From the NCBI GenBank assembly GCA_014437165.1, contig GCA_014437165.1_4090.3: a stretch of 64,000 bases of DNA. One strand, given 5' to 3'. The notes under the pieces were generated by a model that saw only the letters and a list, made by a program, of their open reading frames with translations, had not been told where the DNA came from and searched no databases. The stretch's first letter is position 1. The number at the start of each line of letters is the position of its first letter. Source of the DNA: a phage. Made by a program: the position numbers and the translations under genes. Shown here in pieces: positions 9,917 through 30,475 of the stretch.

Positions 9917-9922
9917 ATTATA

Positions 9923-16063: not shown

Positions 16064-16309
16064 ATGAACAATGTAATAGATCACTACCAAGCACTTAGCC
16101 AAAGTACTAAGAACTATATGAGCTACATGAACGCAGAAGACTTCGCATTCTTCCTCTCAAAATTCTGTGCAATCAATACCCTCAAAAAAAGTACTACCCC
16201 AACAAGTGCACTTATGTTGAATTGCTTTATAGAGGACATCTTTGAGGGACTTCAAAACCCTGACGAAAGTAAACGATTCATTAACCTTTTAGTACTGGCA
16301 TCTATATGA
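16064..16309 (+). CDS. small protein, family A
   Basis: SD AAGGAGA; first of a tandem array of 60-80-aa paralogs. Confidence 0.55.
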   Translation: MNNVIDHYQALSQSTKNYMSYMNAEDFAFFLSKFCAINTLKKSTTPTSALMLNCFIEDIFEGLQNPDESKRFINLLVLASI

Positions 16310-16515
16310 CCCAAGAACAAATTATGCAGTACTACCTATGTGCTCTGTCAAAAGGTGAACAGAATAGCATAGAGCATCAACAAATTATACTTGCAAATGC
16401 AAAACGTTCGGCACTTCTGCTTAACTCAGTCAGAAATAACCTCATAAGGAATTTCCTTGAAGGTAACGAGTCTATGCAGTACTATTTCATCTTAACACTA
16501 TTAATCGAGTACTAA
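16306..16515 (+). CDS. small protein, family A
   Basis: ATGA overlap with previous gene. Confidence 0.55.
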   Translation: MTQEQIMQYYLCALSKGEQNSIEHQQIILANAKRSALLLNSVRNNLIRNFLEGNESMQYYFILTLLIEY

Positions 16516-16516
16516 T

Positions 16517-16726
16517 ATGAACACTGAACATAAAGAATTCTACACCAAATACCTTAGCAACGAAGAACAATTGTTTCTAAGGAGTGTATCACCTTTAAGT
16601 ATAGATACACCACACGCCAGAGATTGCTTTAATAATTGTATACGTAGTACTCTAGAAGCAATCGAATGCAATAACAAAAATATTATGTACTCAGGTTTAA
16701 TAGGACTAATCTACTTTTATGAATAA
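16517..16726 (+). CDS. small protein, family A (MNTEHKEFY...NNCI...)
   Basis: tandem, coupled. Confidence 0.55.
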   Translation: MNTEHKEFYTKYLSNEEQLFLRSVSPLSIDTPHARDCFNNCIRSTLEAIECNNKNIMYSGLIGLIYFYE

Positions 16727-16913
16727 TCATGAAGATTTCTATTGTAGTAAACTACACAAGCAAGAACAGCTATCATTCTCTTTAGCACGACCTATGAGAA
16801 AGAATAATCTGTATTATAATTACGATTTCAGGATAGAGACACGTAATGCAATAGAACATACGTTCCCTGCAACTAAGTACCGCTCTATCCTGAACCTCAT
16901 CTTTAAGTTCTAA
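16719..16913 (+). CDS. small protein, family A
   Basis: 8-nt overlap with previous. Confidence 0.5.
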   Translation: MNNHEDFYCSKLHKQEQLSFSLARPMRKNNLYYNYDFRIETRNAIEHTFPATKYRSILNLIFKF

Positions 16914-16965
16914 AAGGTGCAACAGGAACCGAGTACTTTAATATAGTAAGGATAATTGCATTACA

Positions 16966-17151
16966 ATGAATCATATAAGCTACTACTACCAACAACTATC
17001 CGACAGAGACAAGTACAGTCACAACTCCCATGTGTGGTACTACAAACGCGGCAGTATAAGAGACAAACAACATTACTTCTGTATTTCTATTAAAGAAGCA
17101 CTGACAACTAAGTACACGTACCGAGCAGTACTTAAACTAATCTCTATGTAA
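16966..17151 (+). CDS. small protein, family A (…KYTYRAVLKLISM)
   Basis: paralog of 17160-17342. Confidence 0.55.
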   Translation: MNHISYYYQQLSDRDKYSHNSHVWYYKRGSIRDKQHYFCISIKEALTTKYTYRAVLKLISM

Positions 17152-17159
17152 GGAAGAAA

Positions 17160-17342
17160 ATGAACATAGAATTCTATTTAACTAAACTACAACACGCCGA
17201 AAGATTCAACTTCAATAAGTTCAATATTTTCTACAATTGCGGGAACAAAAAAGATAAACACACCTTCCTATATGTCGTCACAAGAGATGCACAAAACGAA
17301 AAGTACACATACAGAGAAGTAATGAAACTAATCGCTATTTAA
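17160..17342 (+). CDS. small protein, family A (…KYTYREVMKLIAI)
   Basis: SD GGAAGAAA; paralog of previous. Confidence 0.55.
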   Translation: MNIEFYLTKLQHAERFNFNKFNIFYNCGNKKDKHTFLYVVTRDAQNEKYTYREVMKLIAI

Positions 17343-17350
17343 GGAATACT

Positions 17351-17530
17351 ATGCAACAATTCTATATAGAACGTATAACCATAAAAGACCGTTTCATGTA
17401 CGACACATTCGTTGATTACTACAACCTAGGAACAAAAAGTACTAAAAATATTAATCTCAATAGCTGCATTTATGCTGTACTAACACAAGATAATCCCTAC
17501 AGGGAAATCCTCGCCCTGGCATCTATATAA
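17351..17530 (+). CDS. small protein (59 aa), family A-like; below the ORF-track cutoff
   Basis: ATG 17351 after SD AAGGAA; ends ...ILALASI. Confidence 0.45.
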   Translation: MQQFYIERITIKDRFMYDTFVDYYNLGTKSTKNINLNSCIYAVLTQDNPYREILALASI

Positions 17531-17540
17531 AGGAAACCAA

Positions 17541-18212
17541 ATGAAACTTAATGCACACAGCAAACAATACCTTAAGCACTTTAAGTACCTCAATAGTATT
17601 CAGGCAGAATCAGTTACATCTGCATATACGTATCACCCGAATGTACTAAAGAAACGAAATAAAAAGGAAAAATCCAGTACAAATGGAGTTAACGTATCAA
17701 AGAACCTTGAATTGTACATGAAGAAAAATAATATAGCTGTTCATTATATGAATATCTATAATACTGATTTAAAAGTATTGAGTACTAATACGAGCACAAA
17801 GGTACTAAAGAACGCATCCTTCATCATCAATATGCAGTTGGATAATACCCCGTGCACTTTAATGCTATACTTCGGGAATACATACTTCTTCGGGAATTGT
17901 AACACCTCCCACGATGTCAATACAGCACAATTCCAAATGGGTGGCATATACTCTACTGATGCAGAAAAAGTACACGAGAATATGCACTTCTGGCAAGCAC
18001 AACGTACAGAAGAAACTGATACAGTACTACAATTCCTCAAAGAACTAGAACACAAAGAACTACAGGAAGAAGAACTATTCATGTACAGTACTGTAATCGA
18101 TAATCCAGTACTCTATAAAAACGCGTACAATCTGACAAAACATGTACAGGAACTTATCAGTACTAATAAGAAAATGCATCACCTCATTACGTATATTACA
18201 AACTATGTATAA
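17541..18212 (+). CDS. hypothetical protein (223 aa); contains EEELFMYSTVIDNP, a possible divergent family C core
   Basis: SD AAGGAAA; long ORF. Confidence 0.6.
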   Translation: MKLNAHSKQYLKHFKYLNSIQAESVTSAYTYHPNVLKKRNKKEKSSTNGVNVSKNLELYMKKNNIAVHYMNIYNTDLKVLSTNTSTKVLKNASFIINMQLDNTPCTLMLYFGNTYFFGNCNTSHDVNTAQFQMGGIYSTDAEKVHENMHFWQAQRTEETDTVLQFLKELEHKELQEEELFMYSTVIDNPVLYKNAYNLTKHVQELISTNKKMHHLITYITNYV

Positions 18213-18390
18213 AGAATACTACAGGGAACATCTCCCAATGTATCTCCAACACCTTGTACCAACAGAACCATTGGGTATAGAAAAAAACTACGAAAAAGAC
18301 TACTTCATTCAGTGCACTAAATCCTCGATATATATTGAAGACTATAATCGAGTACTGTATCACATCCTTTTACTAATATATAGGTACTAA
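18205..18390 (+). CDS. small protein, family A (MYKEYYREH…LLLIYRY)
   Basis: internal ATG 18205 overlapping previous stop preferred over track start 18142. Confidence 0.55.
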   Translation: MYKEYYREHLPMYLQHLVPTEPLGIEKNYEKDYFIQCTKSSIYIEDYNRVLYHILLLIYRY

Positions 18391-18391
18391 T

Positions 18392-18574
18392 ATGCACAAA
18401 GAATACTACACACAATTTCTCCCCAGCATTTTTGAACACTACGCCAGATACAAAGTCCCCCTGGATAACGATTTGGCAGTACTGGGATTCAATAACTGCA
18501 TAGAACGAAGTATAGAAAATAGTAGTAGTTATGACCAGCTATATAACACTATCCTACTTATATTCAGGTACTAA
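18392..18574 (+). CDS. small protein, family A (MHKEYYTQF…LLIFRY)
   Basis: TAATATG junction. Confidence 0.6.
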   Translation: MHKEYYTQFLPSIFEHYARYKVPLDNDLAVLGFNNCIERSIENSSSYDQLYNTILLIFRY

Positions 18575-18575
18575 C

Positions 18576-18764
18576 ATGCATAAAGAATACTACACAAAAT
18601 ATTTCCCAATGTACCTCAGAACTAATCTATTAGATAAACCTCGCGGTATCAATGCACAAAATGATAAAGTGTATTTTACTATGTGCACTAAAGCATGTAT
18701 ACTAGATTTTGACAGCTACCATCGAGTACTGTATCATACCCTGTACCTAGCTTTCGTATTCTAA
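18576..18764 (+). CDS. small protein, family A (MHKEYYTKY…)
   Basis: internal ATG 18576 (Met16 of track ORF) gives the conserved N-terminus. Confidence 0.55.
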   Translation: MHKEYYTKYFPMYLRTNLLDKPRGINAQNDKVYFTMCTKACILDFDSYHRVLYHTLYLAFVF

Positions 18765-18773
18765 GAGAACAAT

Positions 18774-18959
18774 ATGCATAAAGAATTCTACTTAAGCCAT
18801 CTGGATCTAAACTCCCAAATGCTTATACCACTAATCCCAATAGATATCAAGGATAAGAAAAATACCGAACAATTCATTTACCATACACAGTGTGCGATCA
18901 CCCCAAATTACATTCCATATGAATTGTACTACATTCTCGCCCTAATATATAGGTACTAA
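18774..18959 (+). CDS. small protein, family A
   Basis: MHKEFY N-terminus, LALIYRY C-terminus. Confidence 0.6.
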   Translation: MHKEFYLSHLDLNSQMLIPLIPIDIKDKKNTEQFIYHTQCAITPNYIPYELYYILALIYRY

Positions 18960-18960
18960 T

Positions 18961-19146
18961 ATGCATAGAGAATACTACACACAATTTGTTAAAGGGAACT
19001 ACAAACATGCCGTACCCAGAACCCCTTTAAATTCTCATGACCCAAGTACTATATTCTTGTTTAATGACGCAATACGTACAGTACTCAATACTAAAGATGA
19101 AGATGTGCAGTACGTATTCTTACTATTACTTATATACAGACACTAA
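18961..19146 (+). CDS. small protein, family A
   Basis: MHREYYTQF…LLLIYRH. Confidence 0.6.
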   Translation: MHREYYTQFVKGNYKHAVPRTPLNSHDPSTIFLFNDAIRTVLNTKDEDVQYVFLLLLIYRH

Positions 19147-19151
19147 CTAAT

Positions 19152-19334
19152 ATGAATAAAGAACATAAAGAATTCTATATAAGAAAACTAACATTCGTCC
19201 CCGTAAGAATATATAAAGAATGCGACCCAAGATTATACCTATGGCACTTCAATGAGTGCATAAAAGATTCTATATACCCTAAGAACTATAAAGAACAATT
19301 GTGCTCAGTACTAACACTAGTACTATCATATTAA
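19152..19334 (+). CDS. small protein, family A
   Basis: MNKEHKEFY…NECI…. Confidence 0.6.
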   Translation: MNKEHKEFYIRKLTFVPVRIYKECDPRLYLWHFNECIKDSIYPKNYKEQLCSVLTLVLSY

Positions 19335-19349
19335 TTAATAGAGAATACT

Positions 19350-19541
19350 ATGTATAAAAACTTCTATATAAGTAAACTAAAAGAAAATGAACAAGTATGG
19401 ATTAGATCTATAATTCCACTGGCATTTAATAGATATGCATTTAACAGATGTACCGAGATTGCTATAGACCCTTATAATATTAAAGAGAATGTACAGTATA
19501 ATCAGTACTACTATATCTTAATGCTTATATATAGGAAGTAA
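19350..19541 (+). CDS. small protein, family A
   Basis: MYKNFY…LMLIYRK. Confidence 0.6.
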   Translation: MYKNFYISKLKENEQVWIRSIIPLAFNRYAFNRCTEIAIDPYNIKENVQYNQYYYILMLIYRK

Positions 19542-19560
19542 TTAAACACAAGTAGACAGG

Positions 19561-19643
19561 GGAAGCTCCTAGTGAACAACCTTTATGTACAGGCGAATTG
19601 TTAAAATTCAGCCTGGACAAATGCGATCACTAGGATTCTCCCC
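19561..19643. repeat. 17-bp imperfect inverted repeat GGGGAAGCTCCTAGTGA ... TCACTAGGATTCTCCCC with ~50-bp loop
   Basis: read directly at the end of the family A array. Confidence 0.5.
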
Positions 19644-20178
19644 AGGCTAAACCCCGTAATCATAGGTAGTCATAAGTAATCATATATAAACATTTATATG
19701 AGCACCGTAGAATCACAGAATGATTATATATGATTCAGTACTGATTAGTATAGACAAGATTGCTCAAGAATGCACGGAAATGTGTGTGAATGATTCAGTA
19801 CTGATATGCCACTAAGTAGGCAGAGGAAGTCTGCCGTACTTTGTAGTTTCCAAGCTCCTTTTCCATTTTCAAATTACATCAAATGTAATCAAAAGTAATC
19901 ACGCAATGATTAGTACTGAATTATTACTTTCACCTTAATTACAATTACCCTTTTACCCTTCGGGGTAAAATTCCATTACCCCTTGAGGCTCCAGCAAAAA
20001 GTTGGTTAGTACTCCATCCTAAATCTCGATCCTAAAAATTTTGGAGTACCTATGAAATAAAAGTTGGATCTTCGAAAGTTGAAATTTACGTTGGGACGTT
20101 TATGATTTGTGGGATATAATGATGTTTGTAGACGGGTAGTTCTCAAGAATATCAGTACTGAATGGTGAAAGAAAGTTA

Positions 20179-20206
20179 TTGACATTATGATTCAGTACTG
20201 TATAAT
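20179..20206 (+). promoter_or_regulatory. sigma70-type promoter TTGACA-16-TATAAT with no ORF downstream
   Basis: TTGACA 20179-20184, TATAAT 20201-20206; downstream ~200 nt lacks SD/ORF and ends at perfect hairpin CCACCAGCTTGTGCTGGTGG. Confidence 0.4.
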
Positions 20207-20565
20207 GTTCTACATAGGGTGATGAGTTGCTGCGAACAATTCATTTACTCTACCTCCTGTCGTGAGACAGTACAGAAAAGATAGTTCCTCCTGTGGTGGT
20301 ACATCTTTTTGAACCTCATATGAAAATCGTAATAACAGTACTGACATTAACAGAATGGTGTCAGTACTGATTTTAATCTAAAGCATTATGCCACCAGCTT
20401 GTGCTGGTGGATTCCCTCTAACAGTATTCAGTACTACATGATAGTCTTCATCCTCCTACAGTAACAGTGAGGGCTATTGTGGGAGTACTGAATACTCCCT
20501 TCTTAAAGATAGATCTATGGTATAGTACTGACGGATTTTGGGCGTAGTAACCCTAGGTTGAATTT

Positions 20566-20720
20566 AGACGTAGAGATGTCTAGACCTCCAGATGGCTGGA
20601 AGTAAAGATGGCTATCCCTCTAGGCGGCTGGATGGCTAGATTTCTAGATGGCTGTACTGCTAGACGTTTGGACGGCTAAACGGCTAGATGGTTACACGTC
20701 TGGATGTATAGACGGCTAAA
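20566..20720. repeat. iteron-like array of about 10 degenerate direct repeats (C)TAGAYGGCT
   Basis: AGATGGCT/GGATGGCT/AGACGGCT/GGACGGCT copies at ~10-16-bp spacing. Confidence 0.6.
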
Positions 20721-21419
20721 TCAAAATTTTTATTTTATTTTTTCCAATAGTTCCCCTACCGCGTGGGGATGGTTTCCCCGCAGTATCTGGAGTTAGATTT
20801 TTCTGAATCTGGAATCATTATCTAATAAACTGGGGGCAATGTCAACCGCCTGGATGAATAATTTTAAAAAATAATCTAGTACTGAATTTTAGATACAACT
20901 ATGCACCCGGTGGGCTAGAGTCTTTCTCGACTTGATGAAACTATTATACAGTACTGAAAAAATAAAGCAATACCCTAAACGCAAAAAGTTTTAATTAATT
21001 TGCTTGCCATCCTGGGGCGTACTATGATACTATTATTCAGTACTGAGAAAGTGCTATGACCTGCTAAGGTGCGGGAGTGTATCCTTTTTAAATTTACTGA
21101 ATTTTGGGCGTAATTCCGCACCCCCTGGGGTATCCGCTTTCTCGCGTCTATGTAGTAATTATACGCTTTTTTAGTACTGAGTCAATAGCTAAAAACAAAA
21201 TAATTGAAAATAATTTAACGCGTTTAAACGGCCCGTAAAGCCCTGGTTAGCTGGTGGCGGTGCAAATGTATAGCTTAGGTGTATTAATGCGTTAGAATGC
21301 GATTGAGGACGTTTTACGGGGTATAGTACTGAATCAGTACTGAAAGATTGTTCTCCCTGGATTGTTCCAGTACTCCTATATAGAAAGAAAACTATTTTAA
21401 AAGTATTTGTAGAAAGTAC

Positions 21420-21447
21420 TTGCAAAGTATTGGGAAAGGTGTAGAAT
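21420..21447 (+). promoter_or_regulatory. promoter TTGCAA-16-TAGAAT followed by 5'-UTR hairpin
   Basis: precedes ATG 21505; hairpin CGGGGGAGACGCTCCCG between -10 and SD. Confidence 0.5.
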
Positions 21448-21504
21448 GTTTTACATCGAGACGGGGGAGACGCTCCCGACTCACTTTTAAAAGAGATTAA
21501 AACG

Positions 21505-21867
21505 ATGGCTACTAAAATCAATACTATCATGCTTAACCTGGTTTCTTTCCGTGAAGAGATGAAAGATCTTCCCGCTGAGACTGTACGGATTCACATTGCA
21601 GCTTATCGGGAATTGATTGCAATGTTGCCGCTTAAGCGTGAACAGTACGCCGCTACTGCAATGCTGGATGCAATGATCCATAAGATGATCCAGACTGATT
21701 TAACGATGGCTTATCAGTACATGGGCGAAATGTTTGCAGTGTATAGCAAGCCAGTACCAGGAATGGAAAGTACAGAAGTATTGCACGGCTTAAACTTAAA
21801 ACAAGATGCATGGGATAATATGCCTCGTTTCCTGGTATGGGCTGACAGTGGCAAGATTTACGAATAA
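21505..21867 (+). CDS. hypothetical protein (120 aa)
   Basis: ORF with own promoter + hairpin + SD. Confidence 0.6.
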   Translation: MATKINTIMLNLVSFREEMKDLPAETVRIHIAAYRELIAMLPLKREQYAATAMLDAMIHKMIQTDLTMAYQYMGEMFAVYSKPVPGMESTEVLHGLNLKQDAWDNMPRFLVWADSGKIYE

Positions 21868-21881
21868 GTTTAATAAAGTAC

Positions 21882-21909
21882 TTGCAAACTAAGTTTAAAA
21901 GCGTATAAT
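21882..21909 (+). promoter_or_regulatory. promoter TTGCAA-16-TATAAT (PeSL-like cassette with hairpin 21922-21940 GTGGGGAATAGTTCCCCAC)
   Basis: consensus hexamers; 5' hairpin immediately after TACATCA start region; SD AAGAGGA. Confidence 0.65.
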
Positions 21910-21961
21910 ACTTTACATCAGGTGGGGAATAGTTCCCCACTATAATTAAGAGGATTTAAAA

Positions 21962-22201
21962 ATGGCTAAATCAAAAATGTTCTTAGGACACAAAAACAAA
22001 ACTCAATGGAATGTAAGCCTTTGGATTAATAACGACGAATCATTATACCGGTTGGCCCAGGACTTTATTGCCGCTAACACTAATCGTAATGATGCGGCCC
22101 GTCATATGATGCTATTTTTAGAACAGACTGGACAAGATAAAACACCGGACGGCTTTAAGTATAGCACTACTGCGATCCGTGCGGCGATGGTTGGAATGTA
22201 A
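21962..22201 (+). CDS. hypothetical protein (79 aa); paralog of 24362-24601
   Basis: GHKNKTxWNVSLWINNDESLYR…TPDGFKYSTTAIRAAMVGM shared with 24362 product. Confidence 0.7.
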   Translation: MAKSKMFLGHKNKTQWNVSLWINNDESLYRLAQDFIAANTNRNDAARHMMLFLEQTGQDKTPDGFKYSTTAIRAAMVGM

Positions 22202-22283
22202 GAGAATAGATTAAAAGTACTATTGCACGGTGATAGTACTTTATAATAGATTTCTTTTATACAACAACGATAGGGGTAACAGC

Positions 22284-22550
22284 ATGAATATTATATACTT
22301 TGCAACGCGTGAACTTGCTCGGATTGCCGCACGCCAGGACGGGGCGACGTTTAAAGATATGGGCGTACAATCTGAACGTGGTAAACGTTGGGCCGTAGTA
22401 AAGCAAAGTACAGCCCGATCAATTCAGTACTGGCTATCTGCTTTAAAGCGTCCTGATAGTGTATCGCGTCGCGTGGTAGAAATAAAGCACGACCGCAAGG
22501 GCAACCGCGTTACTGTGTACAGTACTAAAAAGATAGCAGTACTTGAATAA
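22284..22550 (+). CDS. hypothetical protein; paralog of 34763-35158 (…HDRKGNRVTVYS)
   Basis: ATG 22284 chosen (track start 22230 lies inside the promoter). Confidence 0.6.
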   Translation: MNIIYFATRELARIAARQDGATFKDMGVQSERGKRWAVVKQSTARSIQYWLSALKRPDSVSRRVVEIKHDRKGNRVTVYSTKKIAVLE

Positions 22551-22556
22551 AAGTAC

Positions 22557-22584
22557 TTGCAAAGTAAGTTAAAAGGCGTATAAT
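22557..22584 (+). promoter_or_regulatory. promoter TTGCAA-16-TATAAT + hairpin GGTGGGGAAGTATTCCCCACC (22596-22616)
   Basis: same cassette architecture. Confidence 0.65.
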
Positions 22585-22634
22585 ACTTTCTATCAGGTGG
22601 GGAAGTATTCCCCACCACATAAGAGGATTTAAAA

Positions 22635-22865
22635 ATGACTATCATGTATATGACCGAAGTTAAAACTGTAAAAGATACTACCACTGATAAAACTACTTAC
22701 TTACAGCGGATCTGTGGTGTATGGCAACGTATCAGTAAAGCAAAGTACTATAAATTAACATCATATGCCAATCGTTCGGATTCATTCAGTACTGAAATAA
22801 AAGGTAATAAAGTACACCAATACGGCACTTATTACTATTATAGCCTGGACGCGATTGCAGTCTAA
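22635..22865 (+). CDS. hypothetical protein (76 aa)
   Basis: SD AAGAGGA 8 nt upstream. Confidence 0.6.
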   Translation: MTIMYMTEVKTVKDTTTDKTTYLQRICGVWQRISKAKYYKLTSYANRSDSFSTEIKGNKVHQYGTYYYYSLDAIAV

Positions 22866-23291
22866 GCAGTTTTTGAAAATATTTACAATTGCCGGTATTG
22901 ACTTATTTTGTCAGTACTGGCATAATGTATCTATTGAAACGAACAATTTGGCCCACGGGGTGCGGGAGTGTATCTATAGAAAAAGTAGTTTAGTACAGTT
23001 ACAATTGTGCACCCGGTGGGTTAGCTGTTGTCATGGGGTATATTATACCAGTACTGGATAGTGCTGTCAATACCTTTTTACTATTCAGTACTTAAAACTA
23101 TTTTCAAAAAGTACTTGCAAACTATGTTTAAAGGCGTATAATGTTTTACATCAGGACGGGGAATGAATAAGTAACTCCCCGTTAAGTAGCCCAGGAGTAA
23201 GGCACACGAAAAACTCCCCTGATAAAATAGTTTGACAATTGTTTTTAAAAGCGTATAATACTTACATCAACTACTGAATGAGGGTTACAAA

Positions 23292-23903
23292 ATGAAAACT
23301 ATCACTACTACTACTTATGTTATGGCTTTTTCTGAATTGAACGCAGAACAACAAACGTCAGCTATCGAACTGGTTCGGGATCGGGAACGTTCAAGCGGTG
23401 ATGATTTCTTTTCTGAGTCAGTGATCGAGTACTATAAAGAAACAGTACTACCAGAATATGGAATTGATGACGCTGATTTGCAATTCAGTGGTTTTTGGTC
23501 GCAGGGTGACGGTGCATCAATCAGTACTGACCACGTTGACGCAGTGAAGTTTTTACGCAAGGTAAGAGCATTAACTAAGTATCGCTCAATCCGTCACCTG
23601 CTGAATGAAGATGATTTGGCGATGAGTGTAAAGCGTTCTCACTCCCACTACTCGCATGAGAACACTGTAAGCGGGTACATTGAATCGGCTTACACTGATT
23701 TAACCGCAAAACAAGAAACGTTAGTTAATGAGCTTGAGGAACTACTCACTGATACTATTCGTGAATTATCCCGCAAGTTGTACCGTGATTTAGAGAATGC
23801 ATATGAGGATCAATTCACTACTGAAAACATTACGGCACTGATTGAGGGTAACGAATATCAATTCAATGTTATTGATGGCGTAGTAGAATCAATCGAATAT
23901 TAA
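23292..23903 (+). CDS. hypothetical acidic protein (203 aa)
   Basis: SD GAGGG; preceded by tandem promoter/structured leader element 23147-23275. Confidence 0.65.
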   Translation: MKTITTTTYVMAFSELNAEQQTSAIELVRDRERSSGDDFFSESVIEYYKETVLPEYGIDDADLQFSGFWSQGDGASISTDHVDAVKFLRKVRALTKYRSIRHLLNEDDLAMSVKRSHSHYSHENTVSGYIESAYTDLTAKQETLVNELEELLTDTIRELSRKLYRDLENAYEDQFTTENITALIEGNEYQFNVIDGVVESIEY

Positions 23904-23915
23904 TTCAAAAAGTAC

Positions 23916-23943
23916 TTGCAAACTAAGTTTAAAAGCGTATAAT
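23916..23943 (+). promoter_or_regulatory. promoter TTGCAA-16-TATAAT + hairpin GAGGCGGGGAATGGTTCCCCGCTC
   Basis: cassette before 23997. Confidence 0.65.
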
Positions 23944-23996
23944 ACTTTATATCGAGGCGGGGAATGGTTCCCCGCTCACACTAAAAGGGCAACAAA

Positions 23997-24263
23997 ATGA
24001 AAACTTTAAATATCACAACTGCACATCAATTGGTTCGGGATGCAATGGATCATGTGCAAGATTTCTTCCCTGATGTAAGTGTCGTAACTTATGAAAAAGG
24101 TACTTGGACTTATTCAACAATTAATGGTTATGAGCCTGATTTTGATGACCTGGAAGAAATGGAATTTAATTTTGATCTGCTGAATGATGCCGCCCGTGAA
24201 GTTGAAAACGATGTTCAATACATTGATGGAGTAGTCGCACCTGATGCAGTAAAAGGATTATAA
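23997..24263 (+). CDS. hypothetical acidic protein (88 aa)
   Basis: cassette + SD. Confidence 0.6.
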   Translation: MKTLNITTAHQLVRDAMDHVQDFFPDVSVVTYEKGTWTYSTINGYEPDFDDLEEMEFNFDLLNDAAREVENDVQYIDGVVAPDAVKGL

Positions 24264-24361
24264 AATTTAAAAAGTACTTGCATTGTAGTTAGATTAACGT
24301 ATAATACTTTATATCGAGGCGGGAGAATGGTTCTCCCGCTCAATCAAACGAGGATTTAAAA

Positions 24362-24601
24362 ATGGCTAGTACTAAATCTTACAACGGTCACAAAAACAAA
24401 ACTCATTGGAATGTTTCATTGTGGATTAATAACGATGAGTCATTGTACCGGATCGCTCAACGTTGGATCGCACAAAGTAGTACTAAAGATTATGCTGCTG
24501 AATGTATGTACCGCGAATTAAAAGCAAACGGTACTACTACAACGCCGGACGGATTCAAGTATAGCACTACTGCGATCCGTGCTGCAATGGTTGGAATGTA
24601 A
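24362..24601 (+). CDS. hypothetical protein; paralog of 21962-22201
   Basis: shared motifs. Confidence 0.7.
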   Translation: MASTKSYNGHKNKTHWNVSLWINNDESLYRIAQRWIAQSSTKDYAAECMYRELKANGTTTTPDGFKYSTTAIRAAMVGM

Positions 24602-24620
24602 CATTCAGTACTGAATCAAT

Positions 24621-24643
24621 GGCGGGGATTGGTTCCCGCCTTT
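24621..24643 (+). terminator. hairpin GGCGGGGATTGGTTCCCGCC + TTT
   Basis: after stop of 24362-24601. Confidence 0.5.
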
Positions 24644-24658
24644 ACTGAGGATTATCTA

Positions 24659-24943
24659 ATGAGCAAAGTAATTAACTATACAGTACTAAGTAAATCATTA
24701 TCTATCAGCCATTGCACCGATGGTTATTGGCTTTATGATGAAACACGCGGCATGAATTTAGCTATGCAGGAGAAAACTACAGATGCGGCATATCTTAAAG
24801 CACTGGAATACTACCAGAAGCGATTAAAGGAAGTAGAAAACGATTATAATAACCTGAAAGCGAAAGTAGATCATTTCGTCGGTCAATTCGTTGACGATGA
24901 CGAGGACGGGCACTACTGCGACCGTTGCGGATCTTACAGTTAA
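24659..24943 (+). CDS. hypothetical protein (C-terminal CxxC: HYCDRCGSYS)
   Basis: ATG 24659 after SD GAGGA (track start 24629 sits in hairpin). Confidence 0.55.
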   Translation: MSKVINYTVLSKSLSISHCTDGYWLYDETRGMNLAMQEKTTDAAYLKALEYYQKRLKEVENDYNNLKAKVDHFVGQFVDDDEDGHYCDRCGSYS

Positions 24944-24960
24944 GTACTGAGGATTATCTA

Positions 24961-25164
24961 ATGAGTGATTTAATTGAACGTATCAAAGAGCTTGAAGAAA
25001 AAGAATTACAGTTAATCGGCTTACAGAATAAAGTATTCCATGATTTAGGTGGCTTTATTAATGCCTGGGATAGTGGCGATCCTGAAGCGTTACCTGCTAA
25101 CCGCCAGGCAATGATCAATGATGTGCGTGATGTCTTTGAGTATGTTTTAAAGCAATTAAATTAA
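24961..25164 (+). CDS. hypothetical protein (68 aa)
   Basis: same SD sequence ACTGAGGATTATCTAATGAG as the previous gene (duplicated junction). Confidence 0.55.
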   Translation: MSDLIERIKELEEKELQLIGLQNKVFHDLGGFINAWDSGDPEALPANRQAMINDVRDVFEYVLKQLN

Positions 25165-25250
25165 AAAAGTACTTGCAATTAGTTTTTAGTACTGTATAAT
25201 AGTTTACATAGAGGGGAGAAATGGTTCTCCCTGGTAATGAGGAAAATACA

Positions 25251-25472
25251 ATGGCTAATATCACTACTCTTTCTCAACTGGAAGCACTGGTTAAATCTAT
25301 GCGGGAACATGCCGACAATATCGGCGTAAAAGATCCAGCCGTTTGCTTCTGCGACGAAATGAATGATGATACACTGGTAATAGCAGAAGTACAAGATATT
25401 TCTAACTATTCATCGCGTTACACTGGCGGCGTAGCAAATAAAGGTGACTTCTGTTTATACCTTACTAAGTAA
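25251..25472 (+). CDS. hypothetical protein (73 aa)
   Basis: ATG 25251 after hairpin and SD. Confidence 0.55.
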   Translation: MANITTLSQLEALVKSMREHADNIGVKDPAVCFCDEMNDDTLVIAEVQDISNYSSRYTGGVANKGDFCLYLTK

Positions 25473-25719
25473 TACAGAGGGGATCAATTGGTCCCCTTTC
25501 TTTTTTCAGTACTGAATCATTTAATAGACGGATCTATGCACCCAGTGGGTTAGAGACTATCTCGTCTTTATGTAGTAATTATGCCAGTACTGGATGCAGT
25601 TGTCAACAATTATTTTTCAAATACTTTTATATTAAAGTACTTGCTATTAGTTTTTAAACGCGTATAATGTTTTACATCGAAAGGGGAAACGGTTCCCCTG
25701 GTAACTAAGGAATAAGAAA

Positions 25720-25956
25720 ATGGTCGAACAAATAAAATCAACGTCTGCGAATGTAACGGGAACAGTATCACACTTTATTGGTGATGAATCGCGGGGCGTT
25801 CCCTATTGTGCTGTACATGTAAACACTGATGGCAACTACTGGTTTACGGTTTACGGATCTTATTCATTTGGTCTGCCTGGACATCAAAAAATCCTGGATA
25901 AAGTACAGCCAACGGGTAAAAATATCACTGCTGAAATGTTTTATAAAAAATCATAA
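25720..25956 (+). CDS. hypothetical protein (78 aa)
   Basis: cassette + SD AAGGAA. Confidence 0.6.
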   Translation: MVEQIKSTSANVTGTVSHFIGDESRGVPYCAVHVNTDGNYWFTVYGSYSFGLPGHQKILDKVQPTGKNITAEMFYKKS

Positions 25957-26040
25957 AGTACTTGATAATAGTTTTTAGTACTGTATAATATTTTACATCG
26001 CAAGGGGTAGCGGTTCCCCCTGGTAACTAAGGATAATCAA

Positions 26041-26340
26041 ATGAAAGTTGCAATCATCGCCCTGGCTTTATCTGTTTCCTCTTTCGCTGTTAACGCATCG
26101 TTAGATGTGAGTAGTGATAAATTCATTCAGTGCACCGTAGCAATGACCAATGAAAGTACTGGCGAGATTGTTTTAAAGGATTTAGAGATCCAGCCAGAAG
26201 CATTTAAAAGCGGCCCGTTCCATGAAGAAGACGAAAAAGGTAGCACGACAATTTATTACGATGTAAGTACTAAGCGTGGATCGGTCACGGTTATGGATAC
26301 TGAGAAAGTAACGCACACCGGAGTAATTAACTGTTTATAA
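26041..26340 (+). CDS. small secreted/periplasmic protein with Sec-type signal peptide (MKVAIIALALSVSSFAVNA|S)
   Basis: N-terminal K + hydrophobic core + A-x-A-like cleavage motif. Confidence 0.65.
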   Translation: MKVAIIALALSVSSFAVNASLDVSSDKFIQCTVAMTNESTGEIVLKDLEIQPEAFKSGPFHEEDEKGSTTIYYDVSTKRGSVTVMDTEKVTHTGVINCL

Positions 26341-26357
26341 TATAGTACTGAATCACT

Positions 26358-26386
26358 AGCCCACCTTAAACAGTGGGCTTTTTTGT
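26358..26386 (+). terminator. intrinsic terminator AGCCCACC-TTAAACA-GTGGGCT + TTTTTTG
   Basis: classic hairpin + T-run; identical copy at 27093. Confidence 0.8.
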
Positions 26387-26588
26387 TTTTGTATTATCGT
26401 AGTACTGCATACTTTAAAAATAGTTTTAAAATAGTAGTTGACATTACCACAAAAAGGCGTAGAATGTATTACATCAAGACGGGGAGCACTAAGTAGACCG
26501 CCAGTAAGTCGAACGAAAAACTGGACACGTCGATAAAACTTTGATACACTAATAAACGTAAACTAAACTTTAATTGAGGATTTATAAA

Positions 26589-27071
26589 ATGGCTAATGTA
26601 AAATCATTCCTGAAAGCACTGATTTCAAACGATACTGTTATTGCTGCTGAATTGTTGGCTGACCTGGATAACGATACCATGAAAGCAGTACGCAACAATT
26701 TTAACATTGCGTACAGTGAAGCTAAAGAACTGCAAGCCAAAAAGGTAGCAGAACTGGAAGAACAGAAAAAAGCCCGTGAAGCCGAACTGCAAGCAACAAT
26801 CGAAAGTATCCAGGCGGCGGTGGCTGGATTGGATCTGGAAGTAGTTGTAGAAATGGCACATAAAGCCCTGGCGGTTAAGTATGGTGAAGATAAGCCAGAA
26901 TCTAAACCTAAAAAATGGATTCAAGAACGTGTTACTGTAGTACTTGATAACGGGGAAGAACATATGATTCCTGTACGCGGTAACTGCATTGCGGTAGTAC
27001 TGGACGCTATCAAAGAAAGCGGTATGACTCGCGAGGAATGGATCGAAGCTCATCGCAAAGTTGAAGCATAA
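26589..27071 (+). CDS. hypothetical coiled-coil protein (160 aa)
   Basis: ATG 26589 after SD GAGGA; Lys/Glu/Ala-rich heptad-like segment. Confidence 0.65.
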   Translation: MANVKSFLKALISNDTVIAAELLADLDNDTMKAVRNNFNIAYSEAKELQAKKVAELEEQKKAREAELQATIESIQAAVAGLDLEVVVEMAHKALAVKYGEDKPESKPKKWIQERVTVVLDNGEEHMIPVRGNCIAVVLDAIKESGMTREEWIEAHRKVEA

Positions 27072-27092
27072 CAATTAAAGTACTGAATCACT

Positions 27093-27120
27093 AGCCCACC
27101 TTAAACAGTGGGCTTTTTTG
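27093..27120 (+). terminator. intrinsic terminator (identical to 26358-26386)
   Basis: hairpin + T-run. Confidence 0.8.
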
Positions 27121-27356
27121 TGTCTGTAGTATTCCAGTCCACCAGCACCGCCTAGAATCGATTCTAACGCATTAAACTGATTATCTGATACATCGCCCTA
27201 GCTGGTGGCGTTAAGGTCGTTAGAATGCGATTGAGAGCGTTTAAAGTATTTTGCAAAAAGTAATAAAAAGTACTTGCACGATTAAGAGATTAGCGTATAA
27301 TGTTTTACATCGAGAGGGGGAAACGGTTCTCCTTCCAAATCAAAGGAATCAAAACA

Positions 27357-27584
27357 ATGGCTATTATCATTACTCGCGTATCTGGTACTACTGGCAACGA
27401 ACAAGTAGTTGCAGTCATTACTAACAAGGCAGGTGCGGAATTGCAAAATGCAATGAATACCTGGGCCGTTAATGAGTTCGGTCAGTGGGCAAGTGTAGCA
27501 TACATTGAAACCTATCAAGTGCCGTCGATTAGTTTAACTGATTTGGGCGTTGAGCGTATCCTTTGCCTGGATGAATTAAATTAA
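27357..27584 (+). CDS. hypothetical protein (75 aa)
   Basis: ATG 27357 after SD AAAGGAA. Confidence 0.55.
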   Translation: MAIIITRVSGTTGNEQVVAVITNKAGAELQNAMNTWAVNEFGQWASVAYIETYQVPSISLTDLGVERILCLDELN

Positions 27585-27671
27585 AAAAAGTACTTGCAAA
27601 GTAAATCGAATAAAGTATAATACATTACATCAAGGGGAGAAATGGTTCTCCCTGATAATGAGGAAACTAAA

Positions 27672-27884
27672 ATGGCTATCATTACTAAAATCAAAGTTAA
27701 CAAGACTATCGTTAAACTGGTAGAAGTGAAAGAAGGTTATAAAGTATCTTGGTGCGGTATGTATCGGACGTTCGCAGATATAGATGATGCGATCAATTAT
27801 TACAGTGACACGGTTAAAAACTTTGTTCGTGCTGATGTGGTTATGGCAGTGGCAACATATAAAGCAGCGAAAGAAAGTAAGTAA
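27672..27884 (+). CDS. hypothetical protein (70 aa)
   Basis: ATG 27672 after SD GAGGAAA. Confidence 0.55.
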   Translation: MAIITKIKVNKTIVKLVEVKEGYKVSWCGMYRTFADIDDAINYYSDTVKNFVRADVVMAVATYKAAKESK

Positions 27885-27895
27885 AAATATTATCA

Positions 27896-27925
27896 CAGTA
27901 CTATTGACATAGTTTGATAGTACTG
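27896..27925 (+). promoter_or_regulatory. promoter with operator-like palindrome CAGTACTAT-TGACA..TTG-ATAGTACTG spanning the -35 and spacer
   Basis: near-identical copies at 30405-30434 and 38799-38828. Confidence 0.55.
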
Positions 27926-27975
27926 GCATAATAGATTTTATCAAGACGACACATATTAATTTAAGGAATACTAAA

Positions 27976-28299
27976 ATGGCTAAAACTATCATCAACACCG
28001 TTTCCCTGGCTGCAATCCATGCAATCAATGTTGACGGTAAACGTTGGACTGATTCATATGGCAATACTTATCATTCTTGTCATGTAAGCGTTGAACTGGA
28101 TAACGGCTTGAATGATCTGGCGGTTGAATCATTTACTTATGGCTATGAGGATGCATATCAACAAACGGCGGTATCACTCTTAAAGGAATCAGTAGACGGG
28201 CTTGATACTGTTGAAACCTCCCTCTATCGTTTGTGCAATGATCTTAATATCCCGTTGCATTGTACTGTACAGAATGTTAAACGCAAAAAAGATCTTTAA
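27976..28299 (+). CDS. hypothetical protein; paralog of 34344-34667
   Basis: shared …RWTDxxGNTYHSCxVS…ETFTYGY…VKRKKD. Confidence 0.65.
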   Translation: MAKTIINTVSLAAIHAINVDGKRWTDSYGNTYHSCHVSVELDNGLNDLAVESFTYGYEDAYQQTAVSLLKESVDGLDTVETSLYRLCNDLNIPLHCTVQNVKRKKDL

Positions 28300-28379
28300 T
28301 TAGCTTTACTTTATGCAGATACTTTGATATAGTGTCTGCATAGGAGAAAGAAATTAAATCAACTTAAGAGGATAGTAAA

Positions 28380-28649
28380 ATGAAAAATATCAGTACTTTA
28401 ATCGATGCAGGTACACATGTTCGTCGGTCTATGGTTGCAACCAGTTCTACAAAACAAGTACCAAGCGGTTATCTTGTATTTGTGCACGATGGAAAACTCC
28501 TGGAACGTTCAATCAATTTTGATGTTAAAAACAATTGCCGTTTTATTATCTTTCGCCGTGAACAATATAAAATTGATTTGCCAGCGAAGCCCATTAGCGG
28601 GGCGTACAACGTGCAATCATTGTTTGAGCGTCAACCATACACCTATTGA
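28380..28649 (+). CDS. hypothetical protein (89 aa)
   Basis: SD AAGAGGA. Confidence 0.55.
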   Translation: MKNISTLIDAGTHVRRSMVATSSTKQVPSGYLVFVHDGKLLERSINFDVKNNCRFIIFRREQYKIDLPAKPISGAYNVQSLFERQPYTY

Positions 28650-28700
28650 TCAAATCATCGTCAGTGGTCGATTTAGGCCGCTTATATTGGGGATTATACC

Positions 28701-29069
28701 ATGAACGTTAATCAAGTACTGAATGAGATCGAAAGCATCATTAAACCGATGAAGCGTACTGATGCTATGTTAACACCGGAAGAATGCCGCCTTTATGAGC
28801 GTTACAGCGTCGAACAAGTCCAGGCAATGGCTAGTATCCTTCCGGTTAGTAGTACTGCTAAAGGTGGCCCAGGTTTAACCGTACAGGATAAAATCGATCT
28901 CCTTAAGCTCAATGGCTATGTAGTTGATGTCGATAAAGAAAAAGTAATGGTATATGATAGTAGTATTGAGCAAGACTATTATAACTATTGCATGATTGAA
29001 AATGATCCTATTGATTCTATCATTGAAAATATGGTTAACAAAGCATTAAAAGATTTAGATTTAGTTTGA
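28701..29069 (+). CDS. hypothetical protein (122 aa)
   Basis: ORF with ATG start. Confidence 0.55.
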   Translation: MNVNQVLNEIESIIKPMKRTDAMLTPEECRLYERYSVEQVQAMASILPVSSTAKGGPGLTVQDKIDLLKLNGYVVDVDKEKVMVYDSSIEQDYYNYCMIENDPIDSIIENMVNKALKDLDLV

Positions 29070-29143
29070 CAGTACTGTAAAAAGGCGTATAATGTTTTAC
29101 ATAGAGGGGGGAAATGGTTCTCCCCAATAACAGGAGATACAAA

Positions 29144-29296
29144 ATGAAACAATACAACGCTCGGTTTGATGTTACTATCGGTAACGGCAAAGGTCAATTC
29201 TCTTTCAGTACTCGACGCAGTTATACAGAAAACTTCCTGCGTAATTGTGCACTGACCGCCGCACAAATTAAACATTACTTTCAGGCTAAAAAATGA
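29144..29296 (+). CDS. hypothetical small protein (50 aa)
   Basis: ATG 29144 after SD CAGGAGA. Confidence 0.5.
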   Translation: MKQYNARFDVTIGNGKGQFSFSTRRSYTENFLRNCALTAAQIKHYFQAKK

Positions 29297-29382
29297 AATC
29301 ATTAGCTTATTACAGTTCGGCCCTGGTCGGTGCATTGATCGCGGCGTTGTTAGTAACCTATCTATTCTTTATGGTGATTTAA
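29293..29382 (+). CDS. hydrophobic micro-protein (29 aa, single TM: MKSLAYYSSALVGALIAALLVTYLFFMVI)
   Basis: ATGA overlap with previous stop; below track cutoff. Confidence 0.4.
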   Translation: MKSLAYYSSALVGALIAALLVTYLFFMVI

Positions 29383-29517
29383 ATGAATCCTAACGGTATA
29401 GTTTACAGTACTCCTAAAACTAAAGCAGATAAAGCTAAAGCACGTAAAGCGAAAGTACAGGAATACATCAAGCAAGGCATGACACGAAAGGCCGCAGTAC
29501 TTAAAGCTAAAAAATAA
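29383..29517 (+). CDS. small basic protein (44 aa, Lys/Ala-rich)
   Basis: ATG immediately after previous stop. Confidence 0.4.
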   Translation: MNPNGIVYSTPKTKADKAKARKAKVQEYIKQGMTRKAAVLKAKK

Positions 29518-29742
29518 ATGAAAAAAGTGGTTGACTTCGGTCAGCCATTTTGTTATTATATAATCATTGAGAGATAGCTCACTAGCCCACAGGGTGCAGG
29601 AGTGTATCTATTGTATAATGTTTGAGTACTGAAAACTATTTTAAAGTATTTGATAAAAAGTACTTGCAAACTATCTCAATAAGCGTATAATGTTTTACAT
29701 CGAAAGGGGAAACGGTTTCCCCTAGTAATAAGGAAACGAATC

Positions 29743-30084
29743 ATGACTATCTCAATTGCTCAATCTAACTTTGAAAACGAAATCATCGCCCAGGCACTGC
29801 GTTTAAATGATGGTCGGGCCGAAATCAATTACGGTTTCAATTCAGGCGGTTGTGAAAACTATCAGTACTTTGTAACGGCTGATGGCTGTGTCCTGGGCAT
29901 CAATACAGTTATTGTAAACATTCAGAAAATTAATTTCAATGATCCAGACGATAGCCAGTTTTACATTGTAGGCGTAGACGTGAATTATGAGGATGATTCA
30001 CTAACTGATGATCACACTGGCGAGAAGTTAGAAAGTGCATACGGTGAAGATGATTATCAGTCCGGTCCAGAAGATTTCGAATAA
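29743..30084 (+). CDS. hypothetical acidic protein (113 aa)
   Basis: cassette + SD AAGGAAA. Confidence 0.6.
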   Translation: MTISIAQSNFENEIIAQALRLNDGRAEINYGFNSGGCENYQYFVTADGCVLGINTVIVNIQKINFNDPDDSQFYIVGVDVNYEDDSLTDDHTGEKLESAYGEDDYQSGPEDFE

Positions 30085-30179
30085 TATAAAAAAAATAGTT
30101 TGACAATAGATTATAGTACTGTATAATAAGTTACATGAAGGGGAGAAATGATTCTCCCCACTAACAGAGAGAAAACAAA

Positions 30180-30392: not shown

Positions 30393-30404
30393 AAAATATT
30401 ATCA

Positions 30405-30434
30405 CAGTACTATTGACACTGATTGATAGTACTG
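30405..30434 (+). promoter_or_regulatory. promoter with operator-like palindrome (copy 2)
   Basis: CAGTACTATTGACACTGATTGATAGTACTG then GCATAATA. Confidence 0.55.
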
Positions 30435-30475
30435 GCATAATAACTTTTATCAACTACACTACTAAGGAATTAAAA

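Follow-up and report, generated by a model that had tools for sequence, protein, structure and literature searches.

The left terminal repeat of phage T5 spans positions 1-10,219, and an 'injection stop signal' (iss) is annotated at 9,140-10,149, within DNA that is free of genes from 9,157 to 10,936 (the sources named for the T5 system are Heusterspreute 1987, Wang 2005 and Davison, bioRxiv 10.1101/866236). According to Davison (bioRxiv 10.1101/866236), this T5 region is better conserved than the neighbouring genes, overruns the repeat by 270 bp and holds an IRD'-spacer-IRC' arrangement with paired DnaA boxes, 8 in each first-step-transfer region. The Chi orientation rule, and oriented terminal clusters of Chi in the phages LLS and P1, have also been described (PMC12315714), and repression by MetJ is known to need two or more adjacent boxes (PMC3228920). 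Here we analyse positions 19542-21504 of a 64,000-nucleotide stretch of phage DNA (contig GCA_014437165.1_4090.3; this whole stretch is called the window, and its numbering is used throughout). The region holds a physical DNA end, is non-coding and conserved, and has a T5-like layout. We consider it fairly probable that it serves the end of the phage chromosome as a module acting in cis, on which proteins acting on that end would assemble.

Judged by DNA comparison, the window is that of a 121Q-like jumbo coliphage (Asteriusvirus). Positions 19400-21700 are 94.4% identical to Escherichia phage 121Q. They match 42 phage records; almost all belong to jumbo phages of 310-380 kb that infect Escherichia or Salmonella, and those with a classification are Asteriusvirus.

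A physical end of the phage DNA lies within the region

The independent records of G17, ELP-22, CRJP21, E9.1, WPEC5 and fEgEco12 all start or stop at the same base, window position 19815, which is the right end of G17 and WPEC5 and position 1 of the other four. For fEgEco12, PhageTerm placed the termini and restriction digests bore them out (PMC13070987), and PhageTerm gave a 20,668-bp repeat for Sharanji. The G17 record (370,817 bp) includes the repeat at both ends, 1-20,668 being the same as 350,150-370,817, and over about 20 kb, which is the repeat, its authors saw coverage double. These results show that the virion DNA carries direct terminal repeats of ~21 kb, with one physical end at 19814/19815. 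Since the DNA ends at 19815, the region consists of 273 bp of unique DNA and then the 1,690 bp that open a direct terminal repeat of 21,097 bp (19815-40911). A packaging region was among the candidates of an earlier, sequence-only reading of this stretch (the original prediction), and it is supported by the fact that the virion DNA end falls within the stretch. The true genome ends are now fixed for this phage; most deposited Asteriusvirus records are permuted or collapsed.

The features at and around the boundaries of the repeat are the following:

19542-19814: unique DNA outside the repeat, with AATCAT-type short repeats; the least conserved part of the region (0.48-0.86)
19553-19575 and 19627-19649: long imperfect inverted repeat in the unique DNA
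19730 and 19790: two copies of ATGATTCAGTACTGAT in the unique DNA
19814/19815 (in 19796-19835): physical DNA end and left boundary of the direct terminal repeat, CAGTACTGATATGCCACTA-cut-AGTAGGCAGAGGAAGTCTGCC, in six records
19819-19835: hairpin GGCAG-aggaagt-CTGCC just inside the DNA end
40880-40911: right boundary of the terminal repeat, which ends ...GGGCGGGTAACCT at 40911, where G17, CRJP21 and WPEC5 stop

The junction CAGTACTGATATGCCACTA-cut-AGTAGGCAG is kept in all six relatives that align there, including the last ~25 bp before the cut, and the DNA 30-100 bp further upstream is variable. Compared by eye, the cut sites at 19815 and 40911 showed no convincing likeness. The genes of the repeat are all directed away from the 19815 end.

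At the other boundary, the ELP-22 record stops at 40783, 128 bp short of the others and directly after CTAGTACTGAT. A long-range inverted repeat, AAAAAAGTCAAGG...CCTTGACTTTTTT, lies close by (40785-40860), just within the right repeat boundary.

The region is non-coding and under purifying selection

The original prediction had described the stretch as gene-free, and we found no credible gene in it. Compared with 7 relatives, all 11 open reading frames (ORFs) of at least 30 amino acids (aa) in 19542-21504 are broken by stops or frameshifts in at least one, among them a 113-aa minus-strand ORF at 21189-21530. Substitutions in these ORFs are even over the codon positions, with no third-position excess; in the gene whose ATG is at 21505, used as the real-gene comparison, they number 29/33/69 by codon position. 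Hidden protein genes of at least 30 aa were therefore rejected. The curated annotations of 121Q, phAPEC6, G17, CRJP21 and fEgEco12 have nothing annotated in the stretch.

Conservation inside the repeat part is mostly 0.8-1.0, with two scoring windows near 0.6, and the flanking genes have values of 0.70-0.86. These data show that 19542-21504 is non-coding DNA under purifying selection. It is also dense in repeats: 24 direct-repeat families and 78 inverted pairs were counted in 2.4 kb around the region. ARAGORN found no transfer RNA or transfer-messenger RNA gene in the window, and no Rfam 15 family matched it at gathering scores, or even at E<=1; with zero matches in the window, these RNA identities were rejected. 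The block 20938-21164 is matched at 67-71% by the Klebsiella phages Rak2, Muenster and K64-1.

Chi sites are concentrated in the repeat and oriented

Exact Chi octamers number 15 in the window against 0.63 expected. Twelve lie in the repeat, 10 of them on the plus strand:

20391-20410: two back-to-back Chi octamers forming the hairpin CCACCAGC-TTGT-GCTGGTGG, 577-596 bp from the DNA end (CCACCAGC is Chi on the minus strand, GCTGGTGG Chi on the plus strand)
21250-21257, plus strand: third Chi octamer of the region
20403, 21250, 27201, 30920, 32382, 33300, 35843, 37742, 39319 and 39542, plus strand: starts of the plus-strand Chi sites in the repeat
20391 and 27139, minus strand: starts of the minus-strand Chi sites in the repeat

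By the orientation rule, the plus-strand sites would be active for RecBCD moving leftward from 40911, and the minus-strand site at 20391 for entry at 19815. Six Asteriusvirus relatives have retained the Chi pair, and so has fENko-Kae01. In TH47 and ph0011 its loop is flipped (ttgt to acaa), with both octamers intact.

About half of the repeat's Chi sites are intergenic. A repeated module, made of Chi and the motif (G/T)CGTTAGAATGCG(A/T)T 10-50 bp away, occurs at 27139-27231 and 30920-30988. The same pairing is found within the region, at 21250-21303, where the motif is the one held in common with IRD' of T5, and further IRD'-type copies, at 27217 and 30974, lie beside Chi sites. The copy in the region is:

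21289-21316, plus strand: GCGTTAGAATGCGATTGAGGACGTTTTA, 26 of whose 28 bases match the start of the T5 inverted repeat IRD' in the iss (E = 3e-6 against the 1.85-kb T5 region)

A tandem array of predicted MetJ operators lies 0.75 kb from the end

Inward of the Chi pair, four elements follow one another:

20533-20553: conserved box GATTTTGGGCGTAGTAACCC before the array, with a second copy at 21101-21117; equivalents precede the arrays of CBB and fENko-Kae01
20566-20717: tandem array of 19 head-to-tail 8-bp units in one register, consensus A-G-A-C/T-G-G/T-C-T (metbox AGACGTCT)
20718-20743: A/T tract AAATCAAAATTTTTATTTTATTTTTT directly after the array
20744-20790: conserved element CCAATAGTTCCCCTACCGCG-(stem-loop GGGGA/TCCCC)-GCAGTATC

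Natural MetJ operators hold 2-5 boxes. For scoring the array we took the half-metbox matrix and the thresholds that Augustus & Spicer published in 2011 (PMC3228920), by which a site has at least two adjacent 8-bp boxes, each with at least 1/4 of the consensus score, and a total of at least the consensus, 12.58 bits. The published box threshold is reached by 16 of the 19 units and by 1.05% of all 8-mers. The passing units share one register and form blocks of 4, 4 and 7 boxes, worth 25.7, 25.9 and 55.8 bits, with one further box standing alone; the best shuffled run reached 18.8 bits. The original prediction's suggestion of a regulator-binding array is thus supported in the form of a 19-unit array of MetJ-type metboxes. 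We predict that the array is a run of MetJ-type operators, and we infer the binding of MetJ itself.

A distant DNA search with the region matched the array segment in Aeromonas phage AhSzq-1 and Vibrio phage Pontus, both T5-like, and in the podoviruses phiKT and PGT2. It also matched CBB, Serratia phage BF and the jumbo phages of Erwinia, Yersinia and Cronobacter. In CBB and BF the array lies 670-800 bp from the record start, and in the Erwinia phages the match is similarly placed, at about 700 bp. The metbox test gave these results:

CBB: 13 of 15 units pass
Serratia BF: 13 of 16 units pass
GAP32: 13 of 15 units pass
AhSzq-1: 28 of 28 units pass
Pontus: 15 of 15 units pass
PGT2 and phiKT: 9 of 9 units pass, with the arrays 38-109 bp from the end
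118.5-kb T5-like contig: 9 of 9 units pass, near-consensus, about 770 bp from the inferred repeat boundary

Metbox-type runs of 2-6 boxes were also seen in an IMG/VR 63.5-kb contig (5003-5114), a 35.6-kb contig (1882-1897) and a 42.3-kb contig (1111-1142), all from uncultivated viruses and of size classes other than those above. The metbox element may be more widely spread than the three phage groups compared here.

T5, Muenster and fENko-Kae01 have Fur-box-like repeats at the place of the array, with 13-16 of 19 positions matching. There are 5 such matches in T5, 10 in Muenster and 5 in fENko-Kae01, and about 0.5 would be expected; the window has no Fur box. The presence of metbox and Fur-box arrays at one position suggests that two host-operator-like arrays are interchangeable in unrelated phages. 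The T5 run is at 9549-9718 (Davison's preprint is silent on Fur), and the repeats of the Klebsiella phages are at 787-906, 1073-1097 and 1300-1324 in Muenster and at 711-799 and 1034-1058 in fENko-Kae01. A link of metboxes or Fur boxes to phage ends was not found in the literature searched, whose coverage was incomplete, and it may have been described before.

The order of elements is shared with related phages

In Pectobacterium phage CBB and the Klebsiella phages Muenster and fENko-Kae01, whose repeats are defined by PhageTerm or by coverage, the first 1.3-1.7 kb of the repeat is almost gene-free. The three phages and the window share one order of elements: AGTACT motifs, a sigma-70-type promoter, an GATTTTGGG box, the tandem array, a T-rich tract and, last, CCATTAGC.CCCT.CCGCG-(stem-loop)-GCAG(A/T)ATC. 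In CBB and Muenster the T-rich tract is at the place matching 20718-20743. The covariance check foreseen in the original prediction yielded a covarying stem-loop in related genomes, that at 20744-20790. Its flanks are constant over five phage lineages and its stem sequence varies, with compensatory changes in 4 of 4 pairs and 93% of cells paired; none of 500 shuffles reached the observed values. Since the stem pairs are all Watson-Crick, folding as RNA and folding as DNA are indistinguishable.

Promoters, hairpins and the AGTACT palindrome

Three hairpins listed in the original prediction are borne out, with one copy each at 19951, 20391 (the Chi pair) and 20482. So is the promoter at 20179-20206, a 12/12 match to the consensus. 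The DNA end, the array of 8-bp units, the Chi identity of the hairpin at 20391 and three promoter-like sites on the minus strand had no place in the original prediction. The promoters, hairpins and related features of the region are:

19951-19970: perfect hairpin TTTTACCC-TTCG-GGGTAAAA
20008-20049: inverted repeat AGTACTCC...GGAGTAC, in the most conserved block (19992-20091, conservation 0.96-0.99)
20179-20206, plus strand: consensus sigma-70 promoter TTGACA-16-TATAAT, with CAGTACTG abutting the -10 box
20213-20378, plus strand: candidate short transcript of ~160 nt, ending at the terminator-like hairpin 20336-20369
20482-20498: hairpin GGAGTA-CTGAA-TACTCC, which holds one AGTACTGA
20817-20845, minus strand: sigma-70-like promoter TTGACA-17-GATAAT (11/12), facing the stem-loop, the array and the DNA end
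20943-20975, minus strand: promoter-like site of the type found through the repeat, CAGTACTG-TATAAT with a weak -35, TTGCTT, below the scanner threshold
21158-21185, minus strand: sigma-70-like promoter TTGACT-16-TATAAT (11/12), near the edge of the block 20938-21164
21389-21478, plus strand: UP-like A/T tract, promoter TTGCAA-16-TAGAAT (21420-21447) and 5' hairpin (21462-21478), preceding the ATG at 21505

All three minus-strand sites point to the DNA end, and the one at 20943-20975 has 16 nt perfectly complementary to the promoter core 20191-20206. Read by eye, CBB, Muenster and fENko-Kae01 have a sigma-70-like promoter at a comparable distance from the end (300-400 bp), and fENko-Kae01 has a minus-strand promoter at the place equivalent to 20817-20845. 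The block 19992-20091 is also present in this Klebsiella phage, 84-130 nt from its PhageTerm-defined end.

Transcription from the promoter at 20179 would give the candidate ~160-nt RNA. Its terminator-like hairpin consists of two inverted copies of CAGTACTGACA followed by ATTTTAATCT, and the fold of 20213-20415 has a minimum free energy of -67.1 kcal/mol (z -4.85). The anti-Shine-Dalgarno-like CCTCCT occurs three times on the plus strand, in 20253-20303 and at 20452-20457, with two copies inside the candidate transcript.

The palindrome TCAGTACTGA was originally reported to recur at least 15 times in this region, often as ATGATTCAGTACTGA. The count of 15 holds for the whole window, where 0.04 would be expected, and only 6 copies are inside the region; the longer form did not bear out, having only 2 copies, or 3 if the last base is dropped. 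The window has 265 copies of the core AGTACT (a ScaI site), about ten times what base composition predicts, with 19 of them in the region and 173 within ORFs. The core is densest in 19815-40911, with 141 copies, or 6.7 per kb in the repeat against 2.3-3.6 outside. AGTACTGA has 95 copies over both strands of the window against 2.4 expected. Since AGTACT is spread through the window, coding DNA included, the palindrome motif is not specific to the region; its abundance suggests a genome-wide binding site for a protein.

The motif has a fixed place in promoters. The repeat contains about 45 sigma-70-like promoters matching at least 10/12, many of them 12/12 (over 21880-39604), and in 24 of these AGTACT stands at a fixed place, usually as TTGACA-N8-tAGTACTG-TATAAT, when about 15% would be expected by chance. 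This is the second form in which a regulator-binding array is supported: AGTACTG is fixed relative to the -10 box in roughly one in two sigma-70 promoters of the repeat. The palindrome TCAGTACTGA extends AGTACTG, the element of this consensus, into a longer symmetric form; it also builds the stem of the terminator-like hairpin at 20336-20369 and flanks the cut site. The early-promoter consensus can be used for annotating the repeat. A second promoter class in the repeat has the form AGTACTGAAAACTATTTTAAAGTATTTG...AAGTACTTGCA-N16-TATAAT with an UP-like tract.

Two identities were tried for the palindrome and rejected. A SlmA half-site needs G1, T2, purine 3, A4 and G5 (PMC3020112), and TCAGTACTGA, which has C at position 3 and usually T/A at 1, does not correspond to the SlmA site (GTGAGTACTCAC). 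The 18-bp palindrome TGATTCAGTACTGAATCA was rejected as a full operator, with only 7 sites within 3 mismatches.

Gene content and nucleotide skew of the repeat

The repeat encodes a DksA/TraR-type zinc-finger protein (31533-31787, E = 5e-11), a GNAT acetyltransferase (31854-32207), a ParE-like toxin domain (35221-35472) and two DUF7249 paralogues (21962-22198 and 24362-24598). These were the only domains that Pfam recognised in 36 of the repeat's 51 ORFs. This gene content fits what would be an early host-takeover module.

The plus-strand genes at 16-19.5 kb have negative GC skew, and after 20 kb the skew is positive. About 14 small plus-strand genes occupy 16064-19541, with a GC skew of -0.14 to -0.22 and a strongly positive AT skew. 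Since the skew of these genes is opposite to that of the repeat's plus-strand genes, the cumulative minimum falls exactly at the repeat boundary. The GC-skew analysis suggested originally as a sign of an origin gave a minimum at 19-20 kb, but the skew is largely explained by gene orientation, and we rejected GC skew as proof of an origin.

How the region might work

We propose the following course of events. Terminase would cut beside the conserved junction at 19815. RecBCD acting on the left end would meet a correctly oriented Chi after 577 bp, and ten such sites from the right end; since oriented Chi would be met at both ends, we propose that RecBCD turns from degradation to RecA loading. 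The terminal repeats could then recombine into circles or concatemers. Host RNA polymerase would fire from the consensus sigma-70 promoters, both inward and endward, and AGTACTG, fixed against the -10 box, would be an operator-like site for a dimeric regulator. Host MetJ with S-adenosylmethionine (SAM) would polymerise along the run of 16-19 metboxes that lies 750-900 bp inward of the end, and form a ~150-bp protein block beside the conserved stem-loop. This block might stand in the way of RNA polymerase, RecBCD or DNA transfer, or else serve as a repressor sink.

Several points weigh against an end module of this kind. The mechanistic steps are all ones that we infer. Chi is absent from the first 3-4 kb of CBB, Muenster and Serratia BF, so it is not universal in the end module. 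There is no met gene near the array and no promoter overlapping it, the nearest promoter (20845, minus strand) starting ~90 nt upstream of it. In about one array unit out of two, position 6 is G and not the T of the metbox consensus, and together with the lack of a nearby met gene this means that the array binder could be another protein. Neither TTWTNCACA nor a near-consensus DnaA box occurs in 19300-21700, and DnaA boxes are Davison's core of the T5 iss. Homologues of T5 A1, A2 and dmp were not found either: in tblastn searches of the window with 15 pre-early proteins, none scored below E = 0.1.

Beyond the end module as such, we put forward, tentatively and as a possibility more than an expectation, that an interchangeable host-repressor operator array (MetJ metboxes or Fur boxes) is the core of a cis-acting end module shared by three unrelated groups, the Rak2/121Q-like jumbo myoviruses, the T5-like siphoviruses and the phiKT-like podoviruses, with the array 0.04-0.9 kb from a physical end. 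If this is true, host repressors would be the missing trans-acting component of the T5 'injection stop', as an end block, a repressor sink or both.

Alternative explanations

The array could instead be a repressor decoy that, during replication of the phage DNA, would titrate away the host's MetJ, or its Fur in the case of T5 and the Klebsiella phages, so that derepressed methionine/SAM synthesis, or iron uptake, would benefit the phage. In support of this, two different host-operator-like arrays share a position in related phages, the arrays far exceed the two or more adjacent boxes required, and their location in the repeat gives two copies per genome. However, titration needs no end-proximal site, and in three phage groups the distance between array and end is nonetheless 0.04-0.9 kb; we find the decoy rather unlikely. 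Alternatively, the binder could be encoded by the phage, as a small terminase subunit or a MetJ/Arc-like ribbon-helix-helix protein, with host MetJ not involved. As this explanation would have it, the array deviates systematically from the metbox consensus, with G at position 6, and the constant distance to the cut site suggests a role in packaging. But the array is common to jumbo myoviruses, T5-like siphoviruses and T7-like podoviruses, which makes a shared phage protein less economical than a shared host protein, and no ribbon-helix-helix/MetJ domain was found among the 36 repeat ORFs scanned with Pfam. A phage-encoded binder thus seems unlikely.

Other explanations concern the region as a whole, and all the rivals, those of the array included, are compatible with its being an end module. 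In a T5-type injection stop, the ~21-kb repeat would enter first from 40911 and transfer would pause at the region while early genes are expressed. Position, size and boundary overrun are as in the T5 iss, a motif and an array type are common to the two regions, and a repeat full of ~45 strong sigma-70 promoters and small genes, that for the DksA/TraR-type protein included, fits a pre-early module. Against this stand the missing A1/A2 homologues and DnaA boxes, the iss function of this DNA, which is unproven even in T5, and the podovirus PGT2, whose array is so near the end (38-109 bp) that a stop in two steps would hardly make sense; we are doubtful of this explanation. The strong promoters with no ORF behind them, the well-folding ~160-nt unit that ends at a terminator-like hairpin, and the covarying stem-loop downstream of the 20845 promoter could also mean a cluster of small non-coding RNAs, made from the region's four to five promoters. 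We consider this improbable: Rfam gave no match, the all-Watson-Crick covarying pairs tell apart neither RNA from DNA structure nor the strand, and conservation is largely in protein-site motifs (Chi, metboxes, promoters). Very unlikely, in our view, is a replication origin, in which the array would be iterons, the A/T tract an unwinding element and the 20845 minus-strand promoter the source of a primer or R-loop RNA, as is reportedly the case in the models for it, T4 oriF/oriG or the T7 primary origin. The order of array, A/T tract, stem-loop and inward-facing promoter favours an origin, as does the cumulative GC-skew minimum, although the skew mostly follows gene orientation. The units, however, are 8 bp long and match a host repressor operator, and plasmid and phage iterons are typically about 17-22 bp. 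DnaA boxes were not found in 19300-21700, no initiator was recognised among the 36 repeat ORFs scanned, and the same array occurs in T5-like phages, when the origins of T5 map near the genome centre (Davison, bioRxiv 10.1101/866236). Support for a replication origin is weak and indirect.

Comparison with known systems

The T5 region, the metboxes and the clusters of Chi near DNA ends have each been described before. Neither their joint occurrence at a repeat boundary in a jumbo myovirus nor an interpretation of the arrays as MetJ- or Fur-type was found in the literature searched, the coverage of which was incomplete. With the left end of T7-like phages the region has in common a non-coding end, inward host-polymerase promoters and short repeat arrays beside the terminal repeat. 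Unlike in those phages, no phage RNA polymerase promoter was recognised here. The terminal repeat of T7 is 160 bp, against 21 kb here, and its repeat unit is of the CCTAAAG type, not a metbox.

Like the MetJ operators of gammaproteobacterial met genes, the array consists of 8-bp head-to-tail units with a AGACGTCT-like consensus that reach the published scores. It differs from them in having 16-19 boxes, when two or more adjacent ones are needed (PMC3228920), in the frequent G at position 6 and in its location, ~0.75 kb from the end of a virus DNA. As in P1 and the lambdoid phage LLS, which depend on the RecBCD of the host (Genome Res 2025, PMC12315714; Bobay 2013), the exact E. coli Chi is >20-fold enriched, concentrated in the terminal repeat and oriented for RecBCD entry. 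Unlike in P1 and LLS, two Chi sites are placed back to back 577 bp from one end and make up a perfect hairpin, and the phage is a virulent jumbo phage with fixed ends, not cos or headful.

The likeness to Repeat Region 3/iss of T5 is one of layout. In both phages, a long direct terminal repeat has at its inner edge an untranslated stretch of 1-2 kb, which overruns the repeat boundary, by 273 bp here and by about 270 bp in T5, and is dense in repeats and inverted repeats, with conservation at or above that of the neighbouring genes. From the end inward, both have short dispersed repeats, a tandem array with a hairpin, an IRD'-type motif and then genes. The hairpin beside the array is on the end side in T5 and on the gene side here; the adjacent genes read toward the end in T5 and away from it here, in a 350-kb myovirus. 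T5 has nine DRD repeats, GTGCAAATCCGACA, around the repeat boundary, whereas here there is only one GGTGCAAATG (21259-21268) and AGTACTGA is the sequence that recurs in dispersed copies; where T5 has the DRD repeats, AhSzq-1 carries repeats that contain AGTACT. As for the arrays, the T5-like AhSzq-1, Pontus and 118.5-kb contig carry metboxes, and T5 itself Fur-box-like repeats. The T5 iss also has a near-perfect LexA-type box, TACTGTATAAATATACAGTA, at 9411-9426, and AhSzq-1 and Pontus carry one too; the region has no LexA box (CTGT-N8-ACAG). Since DnaA boxes, DRD repeats and A1/A2/dmp are missing, the region is T5-iss-like in architecture and not a strict member. The T5 iss has been sequenced since 1987, with its repeats left without an assigned function, and the finding of the same architecture in 350-kb myoviruses offers a concrete hypothesis: reading the arrays as MetJ- or Fur-type operators and the hairpin as a Chi pair makes a testable reading of the T5-type region.

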